From: an uncultured archaeon
GTDB lineage: Archaea > Asgardarchaeota > Lokiarchaeia > Sigyniarchaeales > SOKP01
Direction: 5' to 3'
DNA length: 64,000 bases
Assembly: GCA_964508365.1 (NCBI GenBank)
Contig: CAZDTP010000006.1
Location: forward strand, 45,777-109,776
This document shows, piece by piece, positions 30,202 to 37,843 of the stretch. Position 1 is the stretch's first letter; each line of letters opens with the position of its first letter. The notes beneath the pieces were generated by a model. That model did no database searches. It was not told the DNA's origin and saw only the letters and a list, made by a program, of their open reading frames with translations. The position numbers and the translations under genes were made by a program.

Positions 30202-31182
30202 TTAATTAGGTGCCTTAAGTTCTTCTAGGTTAACTTCTTGTTCTTGTTGTCGTTTAAACCTTTTAATTTGGTTTTCAATTGCTTTCTCTTCCCTCTTCAT
30301 TAGCTCCTCGTCATTCAATGTGATAGCTTTGAGCTCCTCTTCTCCCATTGGTTTTAAAAAATCTTTAATACTAAAACCATTGTTTTTTTCGGTCGTTTCC
30401 TTGAATTTAGCTTTCATTTCTTTTATTACTAATAATTTTGCCGAAGAACCTCTATTCTGAATAAGAGAGGGGAGATCTGTTTCTATTATCCTTTCAATAC
30501 CCGGTCCCGGGATTCTTTGCGGTATTCTTACGGGTGGTCCAGAAAGTATCGGATTAACGGGTAAATTTTGTAGTGTTAATGAGAGATTTTTTAAATGTTG
30601 TTCTATGCTCTTTAAGGTTTTATTATTCTCATCAATCAATGAAAGTAAAGAATTATCGACTGAAATGTTTTCAATACTTTTTTTCTCGTAGATTGTCGTT
30701 CTCTCCTCAGTATTCTGATTAAAATCTGTTTTTACTGCTTGGATTACTCTTTCTTGAGTTACCTTTGTTCTTTTATTTTTGCTCCCATGTAAATCTATGT
30801 ATTCAAAACCGTCATAACAGTCATCGTTAACCCAAATATCGGAGATGTTAAATTTTTCCGTAAAAGTATACTCAACTTTATGACCGGAGTTTAAGAAAAA
30901 AGTTAGTTTTAAAACCTTGATTTGGATGTCCATAAAACCTTGAATCTCATCTAATTCTATTGAAAATCCTAACCGATTCGTGGCATGGTAAAACTTTTTT
31001 ATTGAAATTAGAGTTGGGGATTGTTTATAATAAATTTCGTGTTTAACAATCTTAGACATTTCAAATTGAAAATTCAAGCGATTAATTTTTTCTGGAAGAA
31101 ATAGAACTTGTTCTTCATCGTTCTTTTCAAATTCTAAGAAAAGATTCTTTTGATCGTCCCAAAATACTTGGAACAATTCCAT
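30202..31182 (-). CDS. Hypothetical protein with beta-rich N-terminus, Pro-rich linker and helical C-terminus
   Basis: 326-aa ORF; GPPVRIPQRIPGPG segment. Confidence 0.7.
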   Translation of the reverse strand: MELFQVFWDDQKNLFLEFEKNDEEQVLFLPEKINRLNFQFEMSKIVKHEIYYKQSPTLISIKKFYHATNRLGFSIELDEIQGFMDIQIKVLKLTFFLNSGHKVEYTFTEKFNISDIWVNDDCYDGFEYIDLHGSKNKRTKVTQERVIQAVKTDFNQNTEERTTIYEKKSIENISVDNSLLSLIDENNKTLKSIEQHLKNLSLTLQNLPVNPILSGPPVRIPQRIPGPGIERIIETDLPSLIQNRGSSAKLLVIKEMKAKFKETTEKNNGFSIKDFLKPMGEEELKAITLNDEELMKREEKAIENQIKRFKRQQEQEVNLEELKAPN

Positions 31183-31344: not shown

Positions 31345-31728
31345 TCAATGTTCTTTAAGATTTGTTAGATAATACACAGGTTTTTTAAGAATCTTACTAA
31401 AATAATTGATCTCTTCTCTTGATTGTTCACCTATATAGTTCTCAACATCTAAGACTAATATTACCTCTTGATCGATTAACTTTCTTAGAGCAATTTCTTG
31501 TAATTTATCCCATTCATTATTGTTAAATTTTTCTTTGTTTAATAACCCATCTACAGAGCAGATTGATACTAGTTTTTTATATTTAATTTGTAAAATCGAT
31601 TCGATTTTGATGAAATAATCTTTAAATCGAATTGAACCAACTAAAAAGATTTTAGTTTCCTTGATCCTCGAAAAATCATAATCACGGAATTCGTCCAAGA
31701 AATTCTTATTTAACCTTTCTTTCTCCAT
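31345..31728 (-). CDS. Small protein, nucleoside deoxyribosyltransferase-like/DUF4406-like
   Basis: IFLVGSIRF...VILVLDVENYIGEQSREEINY...KPVYY. Confidence 0.55.
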   Translation of the reverse strand: MEKERLNKNFLDEFRDYDFSRIKETKIFLVGSIRFKDYFIKIESILQIKYKKLVSICSVDGLLNKEKFNNNEWDKLQEIALRKLIDQEVILVLDVENYIGEQSREEINYFSKILKKPVYYLTNLKEH

Positions 31729-31766: not shown

Positions 31767-32564
31767 ATGAAGTTAGATACAGTCTATTTCGCTGAAAATT
31801 TAGACTTTATGCAAAAAATGAATCCAGATTTTATCGATCTTATTTATATAGATCCACCATTTTATAGTGGGGTCGATTATAAAGATTTTTCTGATATATG
31901 GGGGTCGATTGATGAATATTTAGATTTTATGAATTCACGGATTAAGGAAATGCATCGAATCCTTAAGAAAACTGGAACTTTTTATTTACATTGCGATTCA
32001 AATGCAATTTTTGACTTAAAACCGATATGCGATAAATTTTTTGGGAAAAAAAATTTTCGAAGAGAGGTTATTTGGAATGTAGGAAGTGTTTCAGGATTCA
32101 AAAGCCAAATAAAAGGATGGGTACGTCAGCACGATACGATACTATATTACACGAAATCTGACTCTTTCACATTTAATAAACAATATTTGCCATATAAAGA
32201 GGACTATATTAAAAAAATGTTTAGATATAAAGATGAGAAAGGACGCATCTATCGAAAACGAAGAGGAGGTAAGCAATACTTAGATGAAAGCCTTGGTACA
32301 CTAGTAGGCGATGTCTGGAACGATATATATTCATTTCAGACGATCACAAGATCTAAAGAATATCTCGGTTATCCTACACAAAAACCGGAAAAACTTCTGA
32401 GAAGAATAATTTTATCCTCCTCCAATGAAGGAGATATTATTGCTGATTTTTTCTGTGGATCTGGAACGACTATAGCTGTTGCTAAAAGGTTAGGTAGGAA
32501 ATGGATTGGTGTGGATAATAATCCTAACGCTGTTGAATTGTGTAAAAAAAGGTTAGATTTTTAA
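31767..32564 (+). CDS. Orphan beta-class N6A/N4C DNA methyltransferase
   Basis: YIDPPF (motif IV) precedes YPTQKP and ADFFCGSGTT (motif I); no cognate endonuclease adjacent. Confidence 0.92.
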   Translation: MKLDTVYFAENLDFMQKMNPDFIDLIYIDPPFYSGVDYKDFSDIWGSIDEYLDFMNSRIKEMHRILKKTGTFYLHCDSNAIFDLKPICDKFFGKKNFRREVIWNVGSVSGFKSQIKGWVRQHDTILYYTKSDSFTFNKQYLPYKEDYIKKMFRYKDEKGRIYRKRRGGKQYLDESLGTLVGDVWNDIYSFQTITRSKEYLGYPTQKPEKLLRRIILSSSNEGDIIADFFCGSGTTIAVAKRLGRKWIGVDNNPNAVELCKKRLDF

Positions 32565-32596: not shown

Positions 32597-32989
32597 CTAC
32601 TTTTTAAACACGATTTTGTCAATACCAATCCATTCTTTAGCTTCCTCGATGTTAGATACAATTTTTCTTTTAGAGGATTGAGCATGATCTAAGAGATATT
32701 TAATTTCTTCATTTAAAGGTGGGTTTTTTTTAATTATGAAAGCAGATCTAAAAAGTCTTTCATTATTTCTCTTTAAGAGTTCTAAGATAATTTCAATTGA
32801 AGCTATGCTTAAAAGAATAGCATCGGTAATATCGACGATTATGCTCAAATTTTCGTTGATATCTTTTGTTAATACTTTAAATTCTTCTATAAATCTCTCT
32901 GCTACTGGTGGAGGTAAAGTACCAGTTACCTTTATATAGAAACAACTGTCGTTAATTTTTTCAAATTGATACATAATAATTTGAACCAT
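32597..32989 (-). CDS. Small STAS/SpoIIAA-like protein
   Basis: IIVDITDAILLS and SNIEEAKEWIG pattern. Confidence 0.5.
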   Translation of the reverse strand: MVQIIMYQFEKINDSCFYIKVTGTLPPPVAERFIEEFKVLTKDINENLSIIVDITDAILLSIASIEIILELLKRNNERLFRSAFIIKKNPPLNEEIKYLLDHAQSSKRKIVSNIEEAKEWIGIDKIVFKK

Positions 32990-33305: not shown

Positions 33306-33764
33306 ATGACTTTTAAATGTGAGATAATTGAACGCGAAGCTCAACATACCCTATCTGTAAGAACTACTAGCGCAGTCCAGAATTTGCCTGAAGTATTAGG
33401 AAAGAACTACGGAGCAATAATGCAATATCTAGGCCAACTGAATAAACAAATGAGCGGTCCTCCATTTGTAGCTTACTACAATATGGATATGCAAAATTTG
33501 GAAATAGAGATTGGAATTCCTGTTTCTAATAAATTATCTGATAAAGATGAAATTAAAGCAAGTGAAATACCCTTCGGAAAATTTGCATCTTGTCTTTACA
33601 TTGGACCCTATAGTGAAATTAGACCTGCTTATGAGTCATTAACAAAATATATTGAGGAACAAGGATATGAAGCAGCGGGGTATGTTTATGAATTGTATCT
33701 AAACGATCCTTCTGAAGTACAACCCGAAAAACTTCAAACAGAAATACTTTTTCTACTCAAATAG
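33306..33764 (+). CDS. GyrI-like small-molecule-binding protein
   Basis: GPPFVAYY, YIGPYSEI..AY, YELYLNDP. Confidence 0.88.
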   Translation: MTFKCEIIEREAQHTLSVRTTSAVQNLPEVLGKNYGAIMQYLGQLNKQMSGPPFVAYYNMDMQNLEIEIGIPVSNKLSDKDEIKASEIPFGKFASCLYIGPYSEIRPAYESLTKYIEEQGYEAAGYVYELYLNDPSEVQPEKLQTEILFLLK

Positions 33765-33777
33765 AATTAATAAATTA

Positions 33778-34650
33778 TCATTTTCCTTTTTTATTCTTCC
33801 ATTCTCTGTAAGAATGCAATAATTTTTTTACTTCTTCTCGTTCTATATTATCTTTTGCGAATTGTTTTTCTTCTCCTTCGATTGGATTCATACCTAAAAA
33901 TAAAACATAGAGCTTTTCAAGTTTTTCCAAACTTTCAAAATTCTTTAAACTCTTTAATTGGTTTGTATCAAGGTATAAAGTTTCTAGATTTACTAACGAT
34001 TCCAAATTTTTGATCTCTGTTATTTTATTACTGTTAAGGTACAGAACAGTAAGTTTAGTCAATGTATCTAAGCCCTTGATCTCTGTGATTTGGTTGTAAG
34101 CAAGAAACAAGCGCTCTAGATTAGTTAAAGCTTCCAAATTTTTGACTTCTGATATTTGGTTTCGATTGAGCTGCAGAACCACGAGATTAGATAATTTTTC
34201 TAAGTTTTGTATTTCCTTTATTTGGTTCCCAACAAGTTCCAATCGTATAAGATTAGTTAATGATTCAAGTCCCTTAATTTCAGCGATCATATTATTATTA
34301 ATCTCAAGCCATTGAAGATTAGATAAAGCATCGAGTCCTTTCAGCTCAAGAATCTGATTTCCATTAAGGAAGATACGGTCAAGCTTGGTCAAGGGTTCTA
34401 AGCCCTCAATTACTGTGATTTGATTATTGCTAAGAAATAGTTGTTGAAGATTTGTTAGCTCTTCCAAACCTCTGAGTTTTGCTATTTTATTGTTTGCAAG
34501 GTCTAAAGCAGTTACATTTTTTAACTTCTCAAGTCCTTTTAGCTCTGTGATATCGATAATATCCATGTAATTTATTGTTAATCTAAAATGACCGAGTTCT
34601 TCTCTTACGTTAAATTTTTTACCTTTAACCTTTACCGATCCAAGCCCCAT
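33778..34650 (-). CDS. Leucine-rich repeat protein (SDS22-like)
   Basis: About nine 22-aa LxxLxLxxNxIxxIxxLxxLxx repeats. Confidence 0.93.
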   Translation of the reverse strand: MGLGSVKVKGKKFNVREELGHFRLTINYMDIIDITELKGLEKLKNVTALDLANNKIAKLRGLEELTNLQQLFLSNNQITVIEGLEPLTKLDRIFLNGNQILELKGLDALSNLQWLEINNNMIAEIKGLESLTNLIRLELVGNQIKEIQNLEKLSNLVVLQLNRNQISEVKNLEALTNLERLFLAYNQITEIKGLDTLTKLTVLYLNSNKITEIKNLESLVNLETLYLDTNQLKSLKNFESLEKLEKLYVLFLGMNPIEGEEKQFAKDNIEREEVKKLLHSYREWKNKKGK

Positions 34651-34760
34651 TATATTCCATCAAAATTAGTTCATATACTTATCTTTAAATTATGCTCTGA
34701 AAATATAAAAAATTTCTCATTTTTCTTTTTTTTTTGGCGAAAATTTTTTTGAAGCAAAGA

Positions 34761-34819
34761 TTTAAATATTAAAACGTCCATCCATATATTGGACGTCAAT
34801 AATAACGATGGACGTTATT
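34761..34819 (+). promoter_or_regulatory. TATA box followed by nested palindromic operator-like sites
   Basis: TTTAAATA 34761-68; AACGTCCATC 34773-82 / GATGGACGTT 34807-16; TGGACGT at 34790 and 34809; AATAACG/CGTTATT at 34801/34813. Confidence 0.65.
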
Positions 34820-34850
34820 TATTTAGTTTTAAAAAAAGAGGAGGGAAAAA

Positions 34851-35693
34851 ATGAATTCCAAAATAATATTTCTTAGAGATAAGCAAATGAATGATTTAAA
34901 GAACTTTTTTAAGAAAATAGAATTTTCTACCGAGAACGTATCTAAAGAGTTTAATATTGAAGAAATTTCCTCTCAAATAAGTGAGAAATATGAAAAAACG
35001 ATTAGTCCAGGGCAAGCAGAAGCAGTCCTGCGTCGAGTTATGGGAATTACTCTTTCAAGTAAAGAGCGTAGCCAATTATACGATTTACGGAAAAAAATCC
35101 AAAGATATGAAAAGTTTTTAACTAATTTTACAGAATGGGGAGTAAAATATGATCATTTGCTAAAAATGATAATTCTTGGTCTAACAGAAGAACAATCTGA
35201 TTATCTTCCACATGTTTTTAATAAACTGAACCTAGTTCCTGAGAGGGATGTAATTGGTGTTAATTTTTTCACAAAGTTAACTGAAAATTTCGATAAAACC
35301 TTAACAAGACTACAAATCTGGGATGTTACAAGTAGCAACCGATTTGCCACTATAAGACCCCAATACTATAGAGGTGCAGCAGCAGCAATTCTAGTGTTTA
35401 ACAAAGAAAATCGTGACTCTTTCGATATGATTAAAAAATATTATAATGAATTTAATGAAATCACGGGGTTAAAATTTAAACTTAAACTTAAAAGTAGAGT
35501 TCTGAAGGAGATTTCTATACCCATAGCACTTGTGGGTATAGGAAGTAATTTAGTCATACCATATGAAGAAATTTTATCTCTTACTAAAGACATAGGAGCC
35601 AATTATTTTGAAATAGGAAATATAGAAGATGACCGCTTTCAAGAAACGCTCGATCTTATTGCCACTCAAATATTAGTAAAACTTCAAGAATAA
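34851..35693 (+). CDS. N-terminal HTH-like domain fused to a degenerate Rab-like small GTPase
   Basis: IGVNF, LQIWD, RFATIRPQYYRGAAAAILVF and IPIALVG are Rab-like; G1 and G4 degenerate; SD GAGGAGG. Confidence 0.75.
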   Translation: MNSKIIFLRDKQMNDLKNFFKKIEFSTENVSKEFNIEEISSQISEKYEKTISPGQAEAVLRRVMGITLSSKERSQLYDLRKKIQRYEKFLTNFTEWGVKYDHLLKMIILGLTEEQSDYLPHVFNKLNLVPERDVIGVNFFTKLTENFDKTLTRLQIWDVTSSNRFATIRPQYYRGAAAAILVFNKENRDSFDMIKKYYNEFNEITGLKFKLKLKSRVLKEISIPIALVGIGSNLVIPYEEILSLTKDIGANYFEIGNIEDDRFQETLDLIATQILVKLQE

Positions 35694-35856: not shown

Positions 35857-36522
35857 TTAGGTTAATATTTGTTTATTTTGGGGTGGTTGTATTTTTTCTC
35901 TTTCAGCCAGTTTCTCAGAAAGTTGATTTCTCAGGTTTGAAAGCTTCAAAGCCTCTTTATCTATATCATTAGTTCTAGTAATTAACTTACTATTAATTTT
36001 GATCAATTTTTTTTCTTGTTTACTAATATCTTCTTTTATCCTATTTACTTTCTCTTCAGTTAGAGGCTTTCGCTTTAAGTTAATATATTTGTATTGAATT
36101 TTTGAAAGTTTACTTCGTTCTTTAGCAAGAAGAAATTTATCTCCAACCAAATCTAATTTTTCTTCTGCGATTTCTCTTTCTATTTTAGCGATTTTCCTAT
36201 GAATCTCTGCTATATAAATTTGAACTTCTGCTCTCTTTTCCATATATTTAGCATGATCTAATTCTATCTTTAAACCAGCCTCAGAGAGTTTTAGAATTTC
36301 TTTTACTTCTTGTTTATCTTGTATATATTTCCTTGTTTTCTCTGTTAAGCTTTCTTTAGTTTTTACTAAATCAAAATCTGTTTTAGCCAATGCTTCACGA
36401 GCTTTTGCTCTATCCAATTCTTGGTTTGCAGCTTTTTTAGATTCTTGGGCTAACAACTTTTCATGATTGGCGATTTTGAGGTTATAATCTGCAATTTTCT
36501 CTATATTGGGTATATCTTCCAT
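35857..36522 (-). CDS. Coiled-coil protein
   Basis: Continuous K/E/L-rich heptads. Confidence 0.7.
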   Translation of the reverse strand: MEDIPNIEKIADYNLKIANHEKLLAQESKKAANQELDRAKAREALAKTDFDLVKTKESLTEKTRKYIQDKQEVKEILKLSEAGLKIELDHAKYMEKRAEVQIYIAEIHRKIAKIEREIAEEKLDLVGDKFLLAKERSKLSKIQYKYINLKRKPLTEEKVNRIKEDISKQEKKLIKINSKLITRTNDIDKEALKLSNLRNQLSEKLAEREKIQPPQNKQILT

Positions 36523-36785: not shown

Positions 36786-37547
36786 TTATACTTTCTTAAA
36801 GTTCTCAGGCACATTTAGATTTATTTCAAAGAGTTTATCTTGAATTTTATTCTTTAATTCCTTAGAGAAATTATTAACTATCTCATCTGGAACATAGTTT
36901 AGGTATTCGTTTATTTCACTCTGAATTATCAATCCTAACTGATTCATTAATTCCTCAGTAGTTTCGTGTTTCCTTAAGTAAATATTTTTGTAGGTCTGAA
37001 TATATCGCATATTGAACTTTTTTAACCATCGTTTACCTTTTTGTTCCATTAGAGATAAAATTTGTCTAGAGCTTGAATCATTAAAGTTTTCATATTCATA
37101 TTCATATTTAATTAGCTTATCTTCGCAATGTTTTATAACTTGAGCTCTCTCTTTTGAATTTAAGTCTGTATTGGAATTAAGAAAAATGATAACCATAAAT
37201 TTCTCAAGCAAAAAGTAGATTTGAGCTTTAATATTAGAACCATAGATTTCGAGGTGCGAGAGGTTTTTTATGTTAGCTTGCCCAGCAAAGATTTTAAACG
37301 AGCTTAAATACATCGAAACCAAGTCAAGTTCTAAAAGATTTTTTTGATCCTCTGATAAGTAAGATTTAATAGGTCTATAATCGTCATCCTCATTTGAATC
37401 ATACTCAAAAACCGTAATAGTGTTCCCATACTGATCTGCGATAATAATTCCAATAATCGGGGGTATGACATTAAAATTATGCGTCCGATAAACGGTTTCT
37501 GTTAATTTTTTTTCAACGAAACTATTACCTTTCTGAGCTTCGAGCAT
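36786..37547 (-). CDS. Hypothetical protein, possible longin/roadblock-like domain
   Basis: IIGIIIADQYGNTI beta-hairpin, helix DLVSMYLSSFKIFA, three beta strands, then a helix. Confidence 0.5.
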   Translation of the reverse strand: MLEAQKGNSFVEKKLTETVYRTHNFNVIPPIIGIIIADQYGNTITVFEYDSNEDDDYRPIKSYLSEDQKNLLELDLVSMYLSSFKIFAGQANIKNLSHLEIYGSNIKAQIYFLLEKFMVIIFLNSNTDLNSKERAQVIKHCEDKLIKYEYEYENFNDSSSRQILSLMEQKGKRWLKKFNMRYIQTYKNIYLRKHETTEELMNQLGLIIQSEINEYLNYVPDEIVNNFSKELKNKIQDKLFEINLNVPENFKKV

Positions 37548-37739
37548 AAATCTAAATAAACTTCTACACTATAAATTAAAGAGGGGGTGTTGATTTTTAG
37601 GAAAAAATAGAGAACTTCCGACATTTATGATCGTGAAACAAGTCTTTCACGTACAAACATATCACCCAGCTATGTAAAAAGTTATGATAATTAAATTTAT
37701 GCTATAATTTATTTTGAATCATAAAATCAAAAAAACAAG

Positions 37740-37843
37740 TGGGAGCGACCGGATTTGAACCGGTGACCAACAAGTCTGGAGCCTGCCGCGTTCAGCACTA
37801 TGCACCGAAAGGGCAAAGTTATACCGGGCTTCGCCACGCCCCC
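37740..37843 (-). tRNA. tRNA-Trp(CCA) with a 28-nt D-loop intron (37792..37819, position 21/22)
   Basis: GGGGGCG/CGCTCCC+A; GCAGG-CTCCAGA-CTTGT; ACCGG-TTCAAAT-CCGGT; BHB-like GGTA/TGCT helix with TAA and GAA bulges. Confidence 0.9.

Follow-up and report, generated by a model that had tools for sequence, protein, structure and literature searches.

Organization of the locus

The window, by which we mean the whole 64-kb stretch of DNA that was analyzed, derives from an AT-rich Asgard genome (31.8% GC) of the Lokiarchaeia/Promethearchaeota and carries an open reading frame for a 280-aa protein (Table 1). This protein consists of an N-terminal region of 98 residues, referred to here as domain X, and a C-terminal Rab-like G domain with degenerate nucleotide motifs; the gene is preceded by a TATA box and a short palindromic array. 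Divergent from it lies a gene for a leucine-rich repeat (LRR) protein, an arrangement reported in a first-pass annotation of the DNA and confirmed here, and convergent with it lies a gene for a 253-aa protein.

Table 1. Positions of the genes, domains and promoter elements discussed in the text, numbered from the first nucleotide of the window.
Feature	Coordinates	Strand	Basis or remark
Syntenic block	31767–32564 (+), 31345–31728 (−), 30202–31182 (−), 32597–32989 (−)		DNA methyltransferase-like gene (DPPF motif) and three unknown genes
GyrI-like protein gene	33306–33764	+	Stand-alone small-molecule-binding domain; Pfam 5.8e-21
LRR protein gene	33778–34650	−	Divergent; Pfam LRR_4 2e-46; context, outside the operator
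BRE-like purine-rich stretch AGCAAAGA	34753–34760	+	Directly upstream of the TATA box
TATA box TTTAAATA	34761–34768	+	Identical or nearly so in 30+ related promoters
10-bp inverted repeat AACGTCCATC / GATGGACGTT	34773–34782 / 34807–34816		
ACGTCCA half-sites	34774 (+), 34790 (−), 34809 (−)		
Operator unit 1, GTCCAT-N7-TTGGAC	34776–34794	.	12/12 match; most conserved unit in all homologs
Operator unit 2, GTCAAT-N7-ATGGAC	34795–34813	.	11/12 match; abuts unit 1
AATAACG / CGTTATT palindrome	34801–34807 / 34813–34819		
Shine-Dalgarno-like GGAGGG	34840–34845	+	5 nt before the ATG at 34851; sequence
Open reading frame, 280-aa protein	34851–35693	+	
Domain X, residues 1–98	34851–35144	+	New domain, proposed DNA binding and dimerization; AF2, profile matches
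Rab-like pseudoGTPase domain, residues 99–280 and stop codon	35145–35693	+	Pfam Ras/Roc, PDB Rab matches, Foldseek
221-aa coiled-coil protein gene	35857–36522	−	No family match
253-aa protein gene	36786–37547	−	Convergent; possibly roadblock/longin-like; context
tRNA-Trp (CCA)	37739–37807	−	ARAGORN

The two flanking genes accompany the locus to different extents. Synteny of the LRR gene holds in most close homologs, the gene being absent at one locus (L003) where the operator described below persists. The 253-aa gene adjoins the X gene in all orthologs that are at least 72% identical, with the exception of genome G240, in which a TPR gene occupies the place expected for the X gene. The 253-aa protein gave no Pfam match, and its nearest named cluster in the ESM atlas, Roadblock/LAMTOR2 (score 0.84), is taken as a lead only; a proposed X-like C-terminus in this neighbor was rejected (hhalign probability 0.7%, BLASTP E 1.0). 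It is more conserved (80–88% identity) than the pseudo-Rab protein (64–75%), and several of its homologs in the genus carry an in-frame TGA or TAA inside the matched stretch. The LRR and 253-aa proteins are candidate partners in this lineage rather than universal ones.

Several further features of the surroundings were recorded. Only in this genome and in L001 and L057, its nearest relatives, is the X gene separated from the 253-aa gene by a gene for a 221-aa coiled-coil protein; this gene looks like a recent insertion because its two neighbors are directly convergent in the other homologous loci. The GyrI-like gene is located between the LRR gene and a block whose synteny with the pseudo-Rab locus extends to most relatives, and at L003 it stands directly upstream of the pseudo-Rab gene, replacing the LRR gene; the 130-aa protein of the block has no Pfam match. 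The tRNA-Trp gene is matched in Rfam partially (model positions 10–63) and barely over threshold (30.6 bits). Finally, the contig at L001 (DATKTW010000115.1), titled Candidatus Nanopelagicaceae bacterium, holds the Asgard locus from the pseudo-Rab gene through eS30 and a 629-aa gene at 93–100% protein identity, and is probably a mis-binned contig.

The Rab-like G domain

Assignment of the C-terminal half to the Rab family, as proposed in the first-pass annotation, is borne out by both sequence and structure comparisons. Residues 99–280 match Pfam Ras (4.8e-15) and Roc (7e-11), align with solved Rab11, Rab1 and Ypt1 chains at E about 1e-12, and in an AF2 model built on 77 homologs (pLDDT 84) resemble Ypt1 and Rab11 by Foldseek at E 1e-11 to 1e-12 and a TM by target of about 0.7–0.8. 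The Rab-type segments IGVNF, QIWD and RF..RPQYYRGA are kept, and three of the motifs for nucleotide are lost: GLTEEQSD stands at the G1 position instead of the P-loop GxxxxGK[ST]; WDVTSSN, aligned to WDTAGQE, lacks the DxxG of G3; and VGIGSN, aligned to the NKxD site, lacks the [NT]KxD of G4. The replacements read earlier from the sequence (P-loop by GLTEEQSD, DxxG by DVTS, NKxD by IGSN) are therefore correct at the aligned positions.

These degenerate forms recur in about 85 Lokiarchaeia homologs at 54–94% identity, and among the 77 homologs G110 and L111 are invariant and Q115 nearly so. Because homologs retain the degenerate motifs, the gene appears to be that of a pseudoGTPase under selection, not a decaying one; judging from the motifs, the domain would be unable to cycle nucleotide, and this half of the protein, whose fold places it in the Ras superfamily, is best classed as a putative pseudoGTPase. 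The domain is acidic (pI 5.8), carries an extra Lys-rich β-hairpin at about residues 207–224 according to secondary structure, and ends in ...ILVKLQE, without the prenylation cysteines of eukaryotic Rabs.

Domain X and its predicted dimer

Folded alone by AF2, residues 1–98 gave a model with pLDDT 92, in which strand 5–7, helix 10–22, strand 33–35 and helices 36–46 and 53–63 form a β-α-β-α-α arrangement, followed by a long helix (70–97) and lacking a wing. The domain is basic (pI 9.4), and its members have the common core S-x-GQA-x-A...R..G..L-S-S-x-ERS-x-L..LRKKI..Y..L...F. Comparisons of this fold remained at noise level, whether by Foldseek against the PDB (best E 1.6), by a wide VIA-align search (best Z 4.6, to HAD cap, PWI and RNase II segments) or by a shape search of the ESM atlas (TM by target at most 0.48), and a feature search of the atlas with residues 1–98 gave no usable match. 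At the sequence level, the X profile found among PDB sequences only a non-significant match to GyrA 400–433 (E 1.6), and Pfam searches with 34 X cores returned scattered matches with E above 0.004, none of them significant; HTH_33 was touched weakly by two of the 34 cores (E 0.045). The winged helix-turn-helix that had been ascribed to the N-terminus is thus unsupported as a fold assignment, given a confident model without a wing and structural matches that are all noise. X may still be a divergent helix-turn-helix, which is compatible with the missing fold and sequence matches.

Prediction of the full-length homodimer gave an ipSAE of 0.60 compared to 0.00 for the best control. Among proteins of solved structure, 20 of 30 homodimers and one of 23 single-chain proteins attained this value. 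Runs agreed in at least 98% of contacts, and partner pLDDT was at least 83. The predicted interface is symmetric, comprising residues 47–51, 59, 62 and 70–99, with antiparallel packing of the two long X helices; the prediction supports a two-fold dimer that would be suited to a palindrome. Many of the most conserved X residues lie within this interface, so that conservation of X is no argument by itself for DNA contact.

Distribution of domain X

A profile search of 1.84 billion representatives recovered only 38 proteins with domain X. Some share the X-pseudoRas arrangement of the window protein; others extend it to X-pseudoRas-Ras, with an intact second G domain (in P0097: GDVEVGKT, NKAD and SAK), or to CDC48_N-CDC48_2-X-pseudoRas-Ras; and in proteins without a GTPase domain X occupies the C-terminal half, in some cases with a zinc-ribbon-like tail. 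Of the 399 Asgard genomes searched, 47 encode the domain, most of them from the family of the window. Within the window's genus the distribution is patchy, with X in 27 of 42 genomes, and a single copy is present in the own genome. Neighboring genes vary, from the LRR and 253-aa genes of the window to MoxR and VWA genes (P0106) or an integrase gene (P0107), and in another genus of the family the X gene is found inside a GTPase operon.

Promoter and operator units

The TATA box at 34761 and the Shine-Dalgarno sequence upstream of the ATG lie where the first-pass annotation had placed them. A TATA box of the TTTAAATA type precedes the array in most loci, and in these the first half-site begins 7 nt after the box. 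Directly before the box, CAAAGA or CAAACA is kept in nearly all homologous promoters; from its position, AGCAAAGA would be a TFB-recognition element. The repeats described earlier are also present, namely the 10-bp inverted repeat AACGTCCATC/GATGGACGTT and three ACGTCCA half-sites (the heptamer occurs four times in the 64-kb window, three of these inside a 42-bp span in this promoter), and repeats are conserved in every homologous promoter, more than expected by chance. Alignment of these promoters defines a conserved unit of 19 bp, GTCCAW-N7-WTGGAC, with units abutting head to tail, and the repeats of the window are best read as two such abutting units. The additional AATAACG/CGTTATT palindrome exists as claimed but is not kept in homologs, and looks incidental.

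Arrays contain one to four units, mostly two or three, and the two-unit layout of the window recurs at six other loci (L003, L007, L089, L098, L101 and L117). The usual archaeal distance from TATA box to start site is well established, and the region from about −15 to +4 is the classical position of an archaeal repressor operator; when this distance is applied to the window, unit 1 is predicted to span about −15 to +4.

Departures from this layout were observed in some lineages. At L031, L035, L038 and L040 only unit 1 is palindromic, and later units keep the right half-site alone (TTGGACA, GTGGACA) at 19–20-bp spacing, which suggests arrays of oriented half-sites rather than full palindromes. 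At L044 (G192), L028, L042 and L047, an array of three to four units stands before a three-gene operon: an 84-aa ORF is accompanied by a gene for a 197-aa Ras GTPase and one for an X-pseudoRas-Ras protein of 520–680 aa, in some cases with CDC48 N-domains. At L022 and L052 (P0107-type), where X occurs without a GTPase domain and the locus adjoins a tyrosine integrase gene, GGCCAA-N7-WTGGAC units flank the TATA box on both sides.

Association of the operator with domain X

The 38 non-redundant X loci, 175 kb in total, contain 49 units that match the consensus at 11 or all 12 positions; 50 block shuffles give an expectation of 0.54 (maximum 3). All 49 lie within the promoter of the X gene or of its operon; in the multi-domain lineage, they stand upstream of the operon comprising the 84-aa gene, the 197-aa Ras GTPase gene and the X gene. 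The operator occurs with X-pseudoRas, X-pseudoRas-Ras and CDC48_N-X-pseudoRas-Ras proteins, with the GTPase operon, and with X proteins that lack a GTPase domain; it accompanies X across five domain architectures and four Asgard families. Neighboring genes and C-terminal domains differ among these loci, leaving X as the sole element common to them.

A genome-wide motif search gave no other convincing site in the own genome. Only five sites there deviate from the motif at one position or none, namely the two of this promoter and three others that lack a TATA box, two of the latter falling within open reading frames. At up to two mismatches, 82 sites compare to 86 for a reversed-pattern control, and a regulon beyond this promoter in the own genome was rejected. 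Within the genus, 32 exact sites occur in the 27 genomes with X (control pattern, 3) and three in the 15 genomes without X (control, 3), a comparison that is descriptive because the genomes are related. The exact-motif scan covered 399 Asgard genomes and was used within the own genus only, background swamping the signal outside the AT-rich family.

Correspondence of operator and X variants

Two natural versions of the operator correspond to two versions of X. Operators of the GTCAAT/ATTGAC type, as at L087 and L095, pair with K-Q-R-T-Q at X residues 71–75 (Q72/T74, or N74), and those of the GTCCAT/ATGGAC type with K-E-R-S-Q (E72/S74). Within the window's own family, the match between operator and X variant (E72Q/S74T) holds at 31 of 32 loci, and it survives at least three discordances with the G-domain tree. 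In the whole-protein tree the state of residue 74 switches at least four times. Reading these switches as independent covariation events was rejected, since a tree of X only, with residues 71–75 removed, collapses the T/N74 rows into one clade; a test of independent pairs gave three in the same and none in the opposite direction (p = 0.25), too few pairs for a sign test. The G-domain tree requires five changes of residue 74, of which at least three are forced. Given one clade in the X-only tree and at least three forced changes in the G-domain tree, the pattern may be read as the single origin of a co-inherited operator-plus-X module that was later recombined onto different G domains. The variant match is consistent with co-adaptation, and may also stem from one origin together with physical linkage over about 280 bp.

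Proposed mechanism and alternative explanations

The operator after the TATA box of every X-domain gene suggests a new self-regulating transcription factor family on a small-GTPase fold. Our preferred reading, to which we assign a probability of about 0.6, is that X would be a new dimeric DNA-binding domain and that the protein would repress its own promoter under the control of its pseudoGTPase domain; the start site, the direction of regulation and DNA binding are what we infer. Specifically, X would form a two-fold symmetric dimer via its long helix and bind the tandem 19-bp palindromes, and since the operators, 7 bp after the TATA box, would cover the expected start site, their occupancy just downstream of TBP/TFB would exclude RNA polymerase from recruitment. 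The resulting autorepression would probably be cooperative along the 19-bp array. The pseudo-Rab domain would serve as the input module, a docking surface for a protein partner that is most likely a genuine small GTPase; in the simplest model, this GTPase would pair with the pseudoGTPase and alter operator affinity, thereby coupling small-GTPase signaling to transcription. A protein partner is preferred over a small ligand because genuine GTPases are fused or operonic in relatives. The earlier proposal of an autoregulated transcription factor with a Rab-like sensor gains strong comparative support as a whole, without its winged helix-turn-helix and with a protein rather than a small ligand as the indicated input. 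The charge of the two halves, X being basic and the G domain acidic, would also favor DNA binding by X.

More tentatively, and with slightly less than even odds, X might represent an undescribed DNA-binding fold in a transcription factor family gated by a small-GTPase fold, which would relay the state of the expanded Asgard small-GTPase network directly to the promoter via the pseudo-Rab domain, acting either by itself or next to a live Ras-like GTPase in a tandem arrangement; operator and X would then be a co-adapted specificity module shuffled between G domains.

Against DNA binding by X stands the fact that the searches linked it to no known DNA-binding fold or family. This would be expected if X served only for dimerization or as an adaptor within a pseudoGTPase scaffold or decoy, the operator being bound by an unrelated transcription factor that controls X genes in trans. 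Mapping of the conserved residues to a protein–protein interface points the same way, and the CDC48 N-domain fusions, typical of protein-handling machines, would also suit a purely protein-binding adaptor. However, such a factor would need one target per genome and would have to stay with X in five architectures and four Asgard families that have no neighbor gene in common, and it would lack a target in those genomes of the genus that have no X, in which the motif is at background; moreover, the operator variant tracks the X variant. Control in trans is consequently considered unlikely. We regard it as very improbable that, instead of being operators, the 19-bp arrays serve a mobile X cassette as recombination sites or iterons. 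The patchiness of X in the genus (27 of 42 genomes), the integrase gene adjoining one X locus, the TPR gene that replaces the X gene in G240 and the apparent recombination of the operator-plus-X module onto different G domains would fit a mobile element, but the fixed 7-nt spacing from the TATA box and the placement at the start site have the look of a repressor operator, and the arrays are confined to one flank of the gene, no second copy bordering a cassette.

The first-pass annotation had also raised the possibility of an RNA switch, i.e. that the palindromes act as RNA, in the form of 5′-leader hairpins governing translation or stability. Unit 2 and later units would indeed be transcribed, stems of 6 bp with 7-nt loops are feasible, and the leader of the window holds an AAUAACG/CGUUAUU stem. 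Nevertheless, across 82 units, pairs with a deviation in a half-site were unpaired 98 times and paired 15 times, and the W:W position was complementary in 35 of 64 units, which is chance level. Because deviations are uncompensated and the W:W position is at chance, the half-sites appear to be conserved as sequence, not as a stem. In addition, the best conserved unit 1 starts 7 nt after the TATA box, placing its first half-site between the box and the expected start site and hence upstream of the latter; the AATAACG/CGTTATT pair lacks conservation; the presumed 5′ leader folds no better than shuffled sequence (MFE −9.2 kcal/mol, z = −0.43); and no Rfam family matched at this promoter or leader. 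An RNA element is thus disfavored and seems scarcely credible beside a DNA operator bound by X.

Comparison with known systems

Asgard archaea possess dozens of Ras-superfamily GTPases, the cellular roles of which are almost entirely unknown and which tend to be considered solely as precursors of membrane trafficking. Neither the family nor the domain nor the operator was described in the literature searched, which included the main paper on Asgard small GTPases. If true, the proposed mechanism would provide the first direct, testable link from the Asgard GTPase expansion to gene regulation, and would extend the archaeal set of DNA-binding domains by a new one. The system is simple to test, consisting of a single protein and a 38-bp operator, with two specificity variants that occur naturally.

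Among small GTPases, the window protein has the G-domain fold and Rab-type segments in common with eukaryotic and Asgard Rab/Ypt proteins, Rab11, Rab1 and Ypt1 being its best relatives in the PDB; it differs in the conserved loss of the G1, G3 and G4 motifs, in lacking a prenylation cysteine, and in having the 98-residue N-terminal domain and the Lys-rich β-hairpin insert. Asgard Rabs likewise lack a C-terminal prenylation tail (PMC10933270), and pseudoGTPases are exemplified by the pG domains of p190RhoGAP (PMC5593906) and by AAGAB (PMC12490416). Like the window protein, pseudoGTPases combine a G fold under selection with missing nucleotide motifs, the fold serving protein–protein interaction in the known examples; p190RhoGAP pG domains and AAGAB act in cytoskeletal signaling or as assembly chaperones, unlike the role proposed here. 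To our knowledge, no pseudoGTPase is joined to a DNA-binding domain or linked with an operator.

Regarding transcription factors, membership in the archaeal downstream-TATA repressor, MerR or STAND-HTH families is not supported, and the following likenesses are to be read accordingly. Archaeal repressors of the MDR1, LrpA, Phr and TrmB types have operators downstream of the TATA box, and the likeness extends to a palindrome between TATA box and start site, to autoregulation and to dimeric binding, which is predicted here. As would be looked for in a repressor, the palindrome at this locus lies between the TATA box and the inferred start site and is kept in orthologous promoters, and a symmetric dimer is predicted. 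Those proteins use recognized winged helix-turn-helix or ribbon-helix-helix domains with small-molecule or metal sensors, whereas an unrecognized domain is joined here to a GTPase fold. MerR-family proteins such as BmrR, which are remodelers of bacterial sigma-70 promoters, combine an N-terminal DNA-binding part, an antiparallel dimer of long helices, a C-terminal sensor and a palindrome inside the core promoter; the resemblance is architectural and a functional analogy only, no sequence or fold match to MerR having been found. STAND/LAL-type regulators such as MalT and AfsR are active STAND ATPases with LuxR or SARP helix-turn-helix domains, and share with the window protein the fusion of a P-loop NTPase switch module to a DNA-binding domain, the latter being proposed here; the module of the window protein differs in being a TRAFAC small-GTPase fold that has lost its nucleotide motifs, and the optional second GTPase of its relatives is intact.
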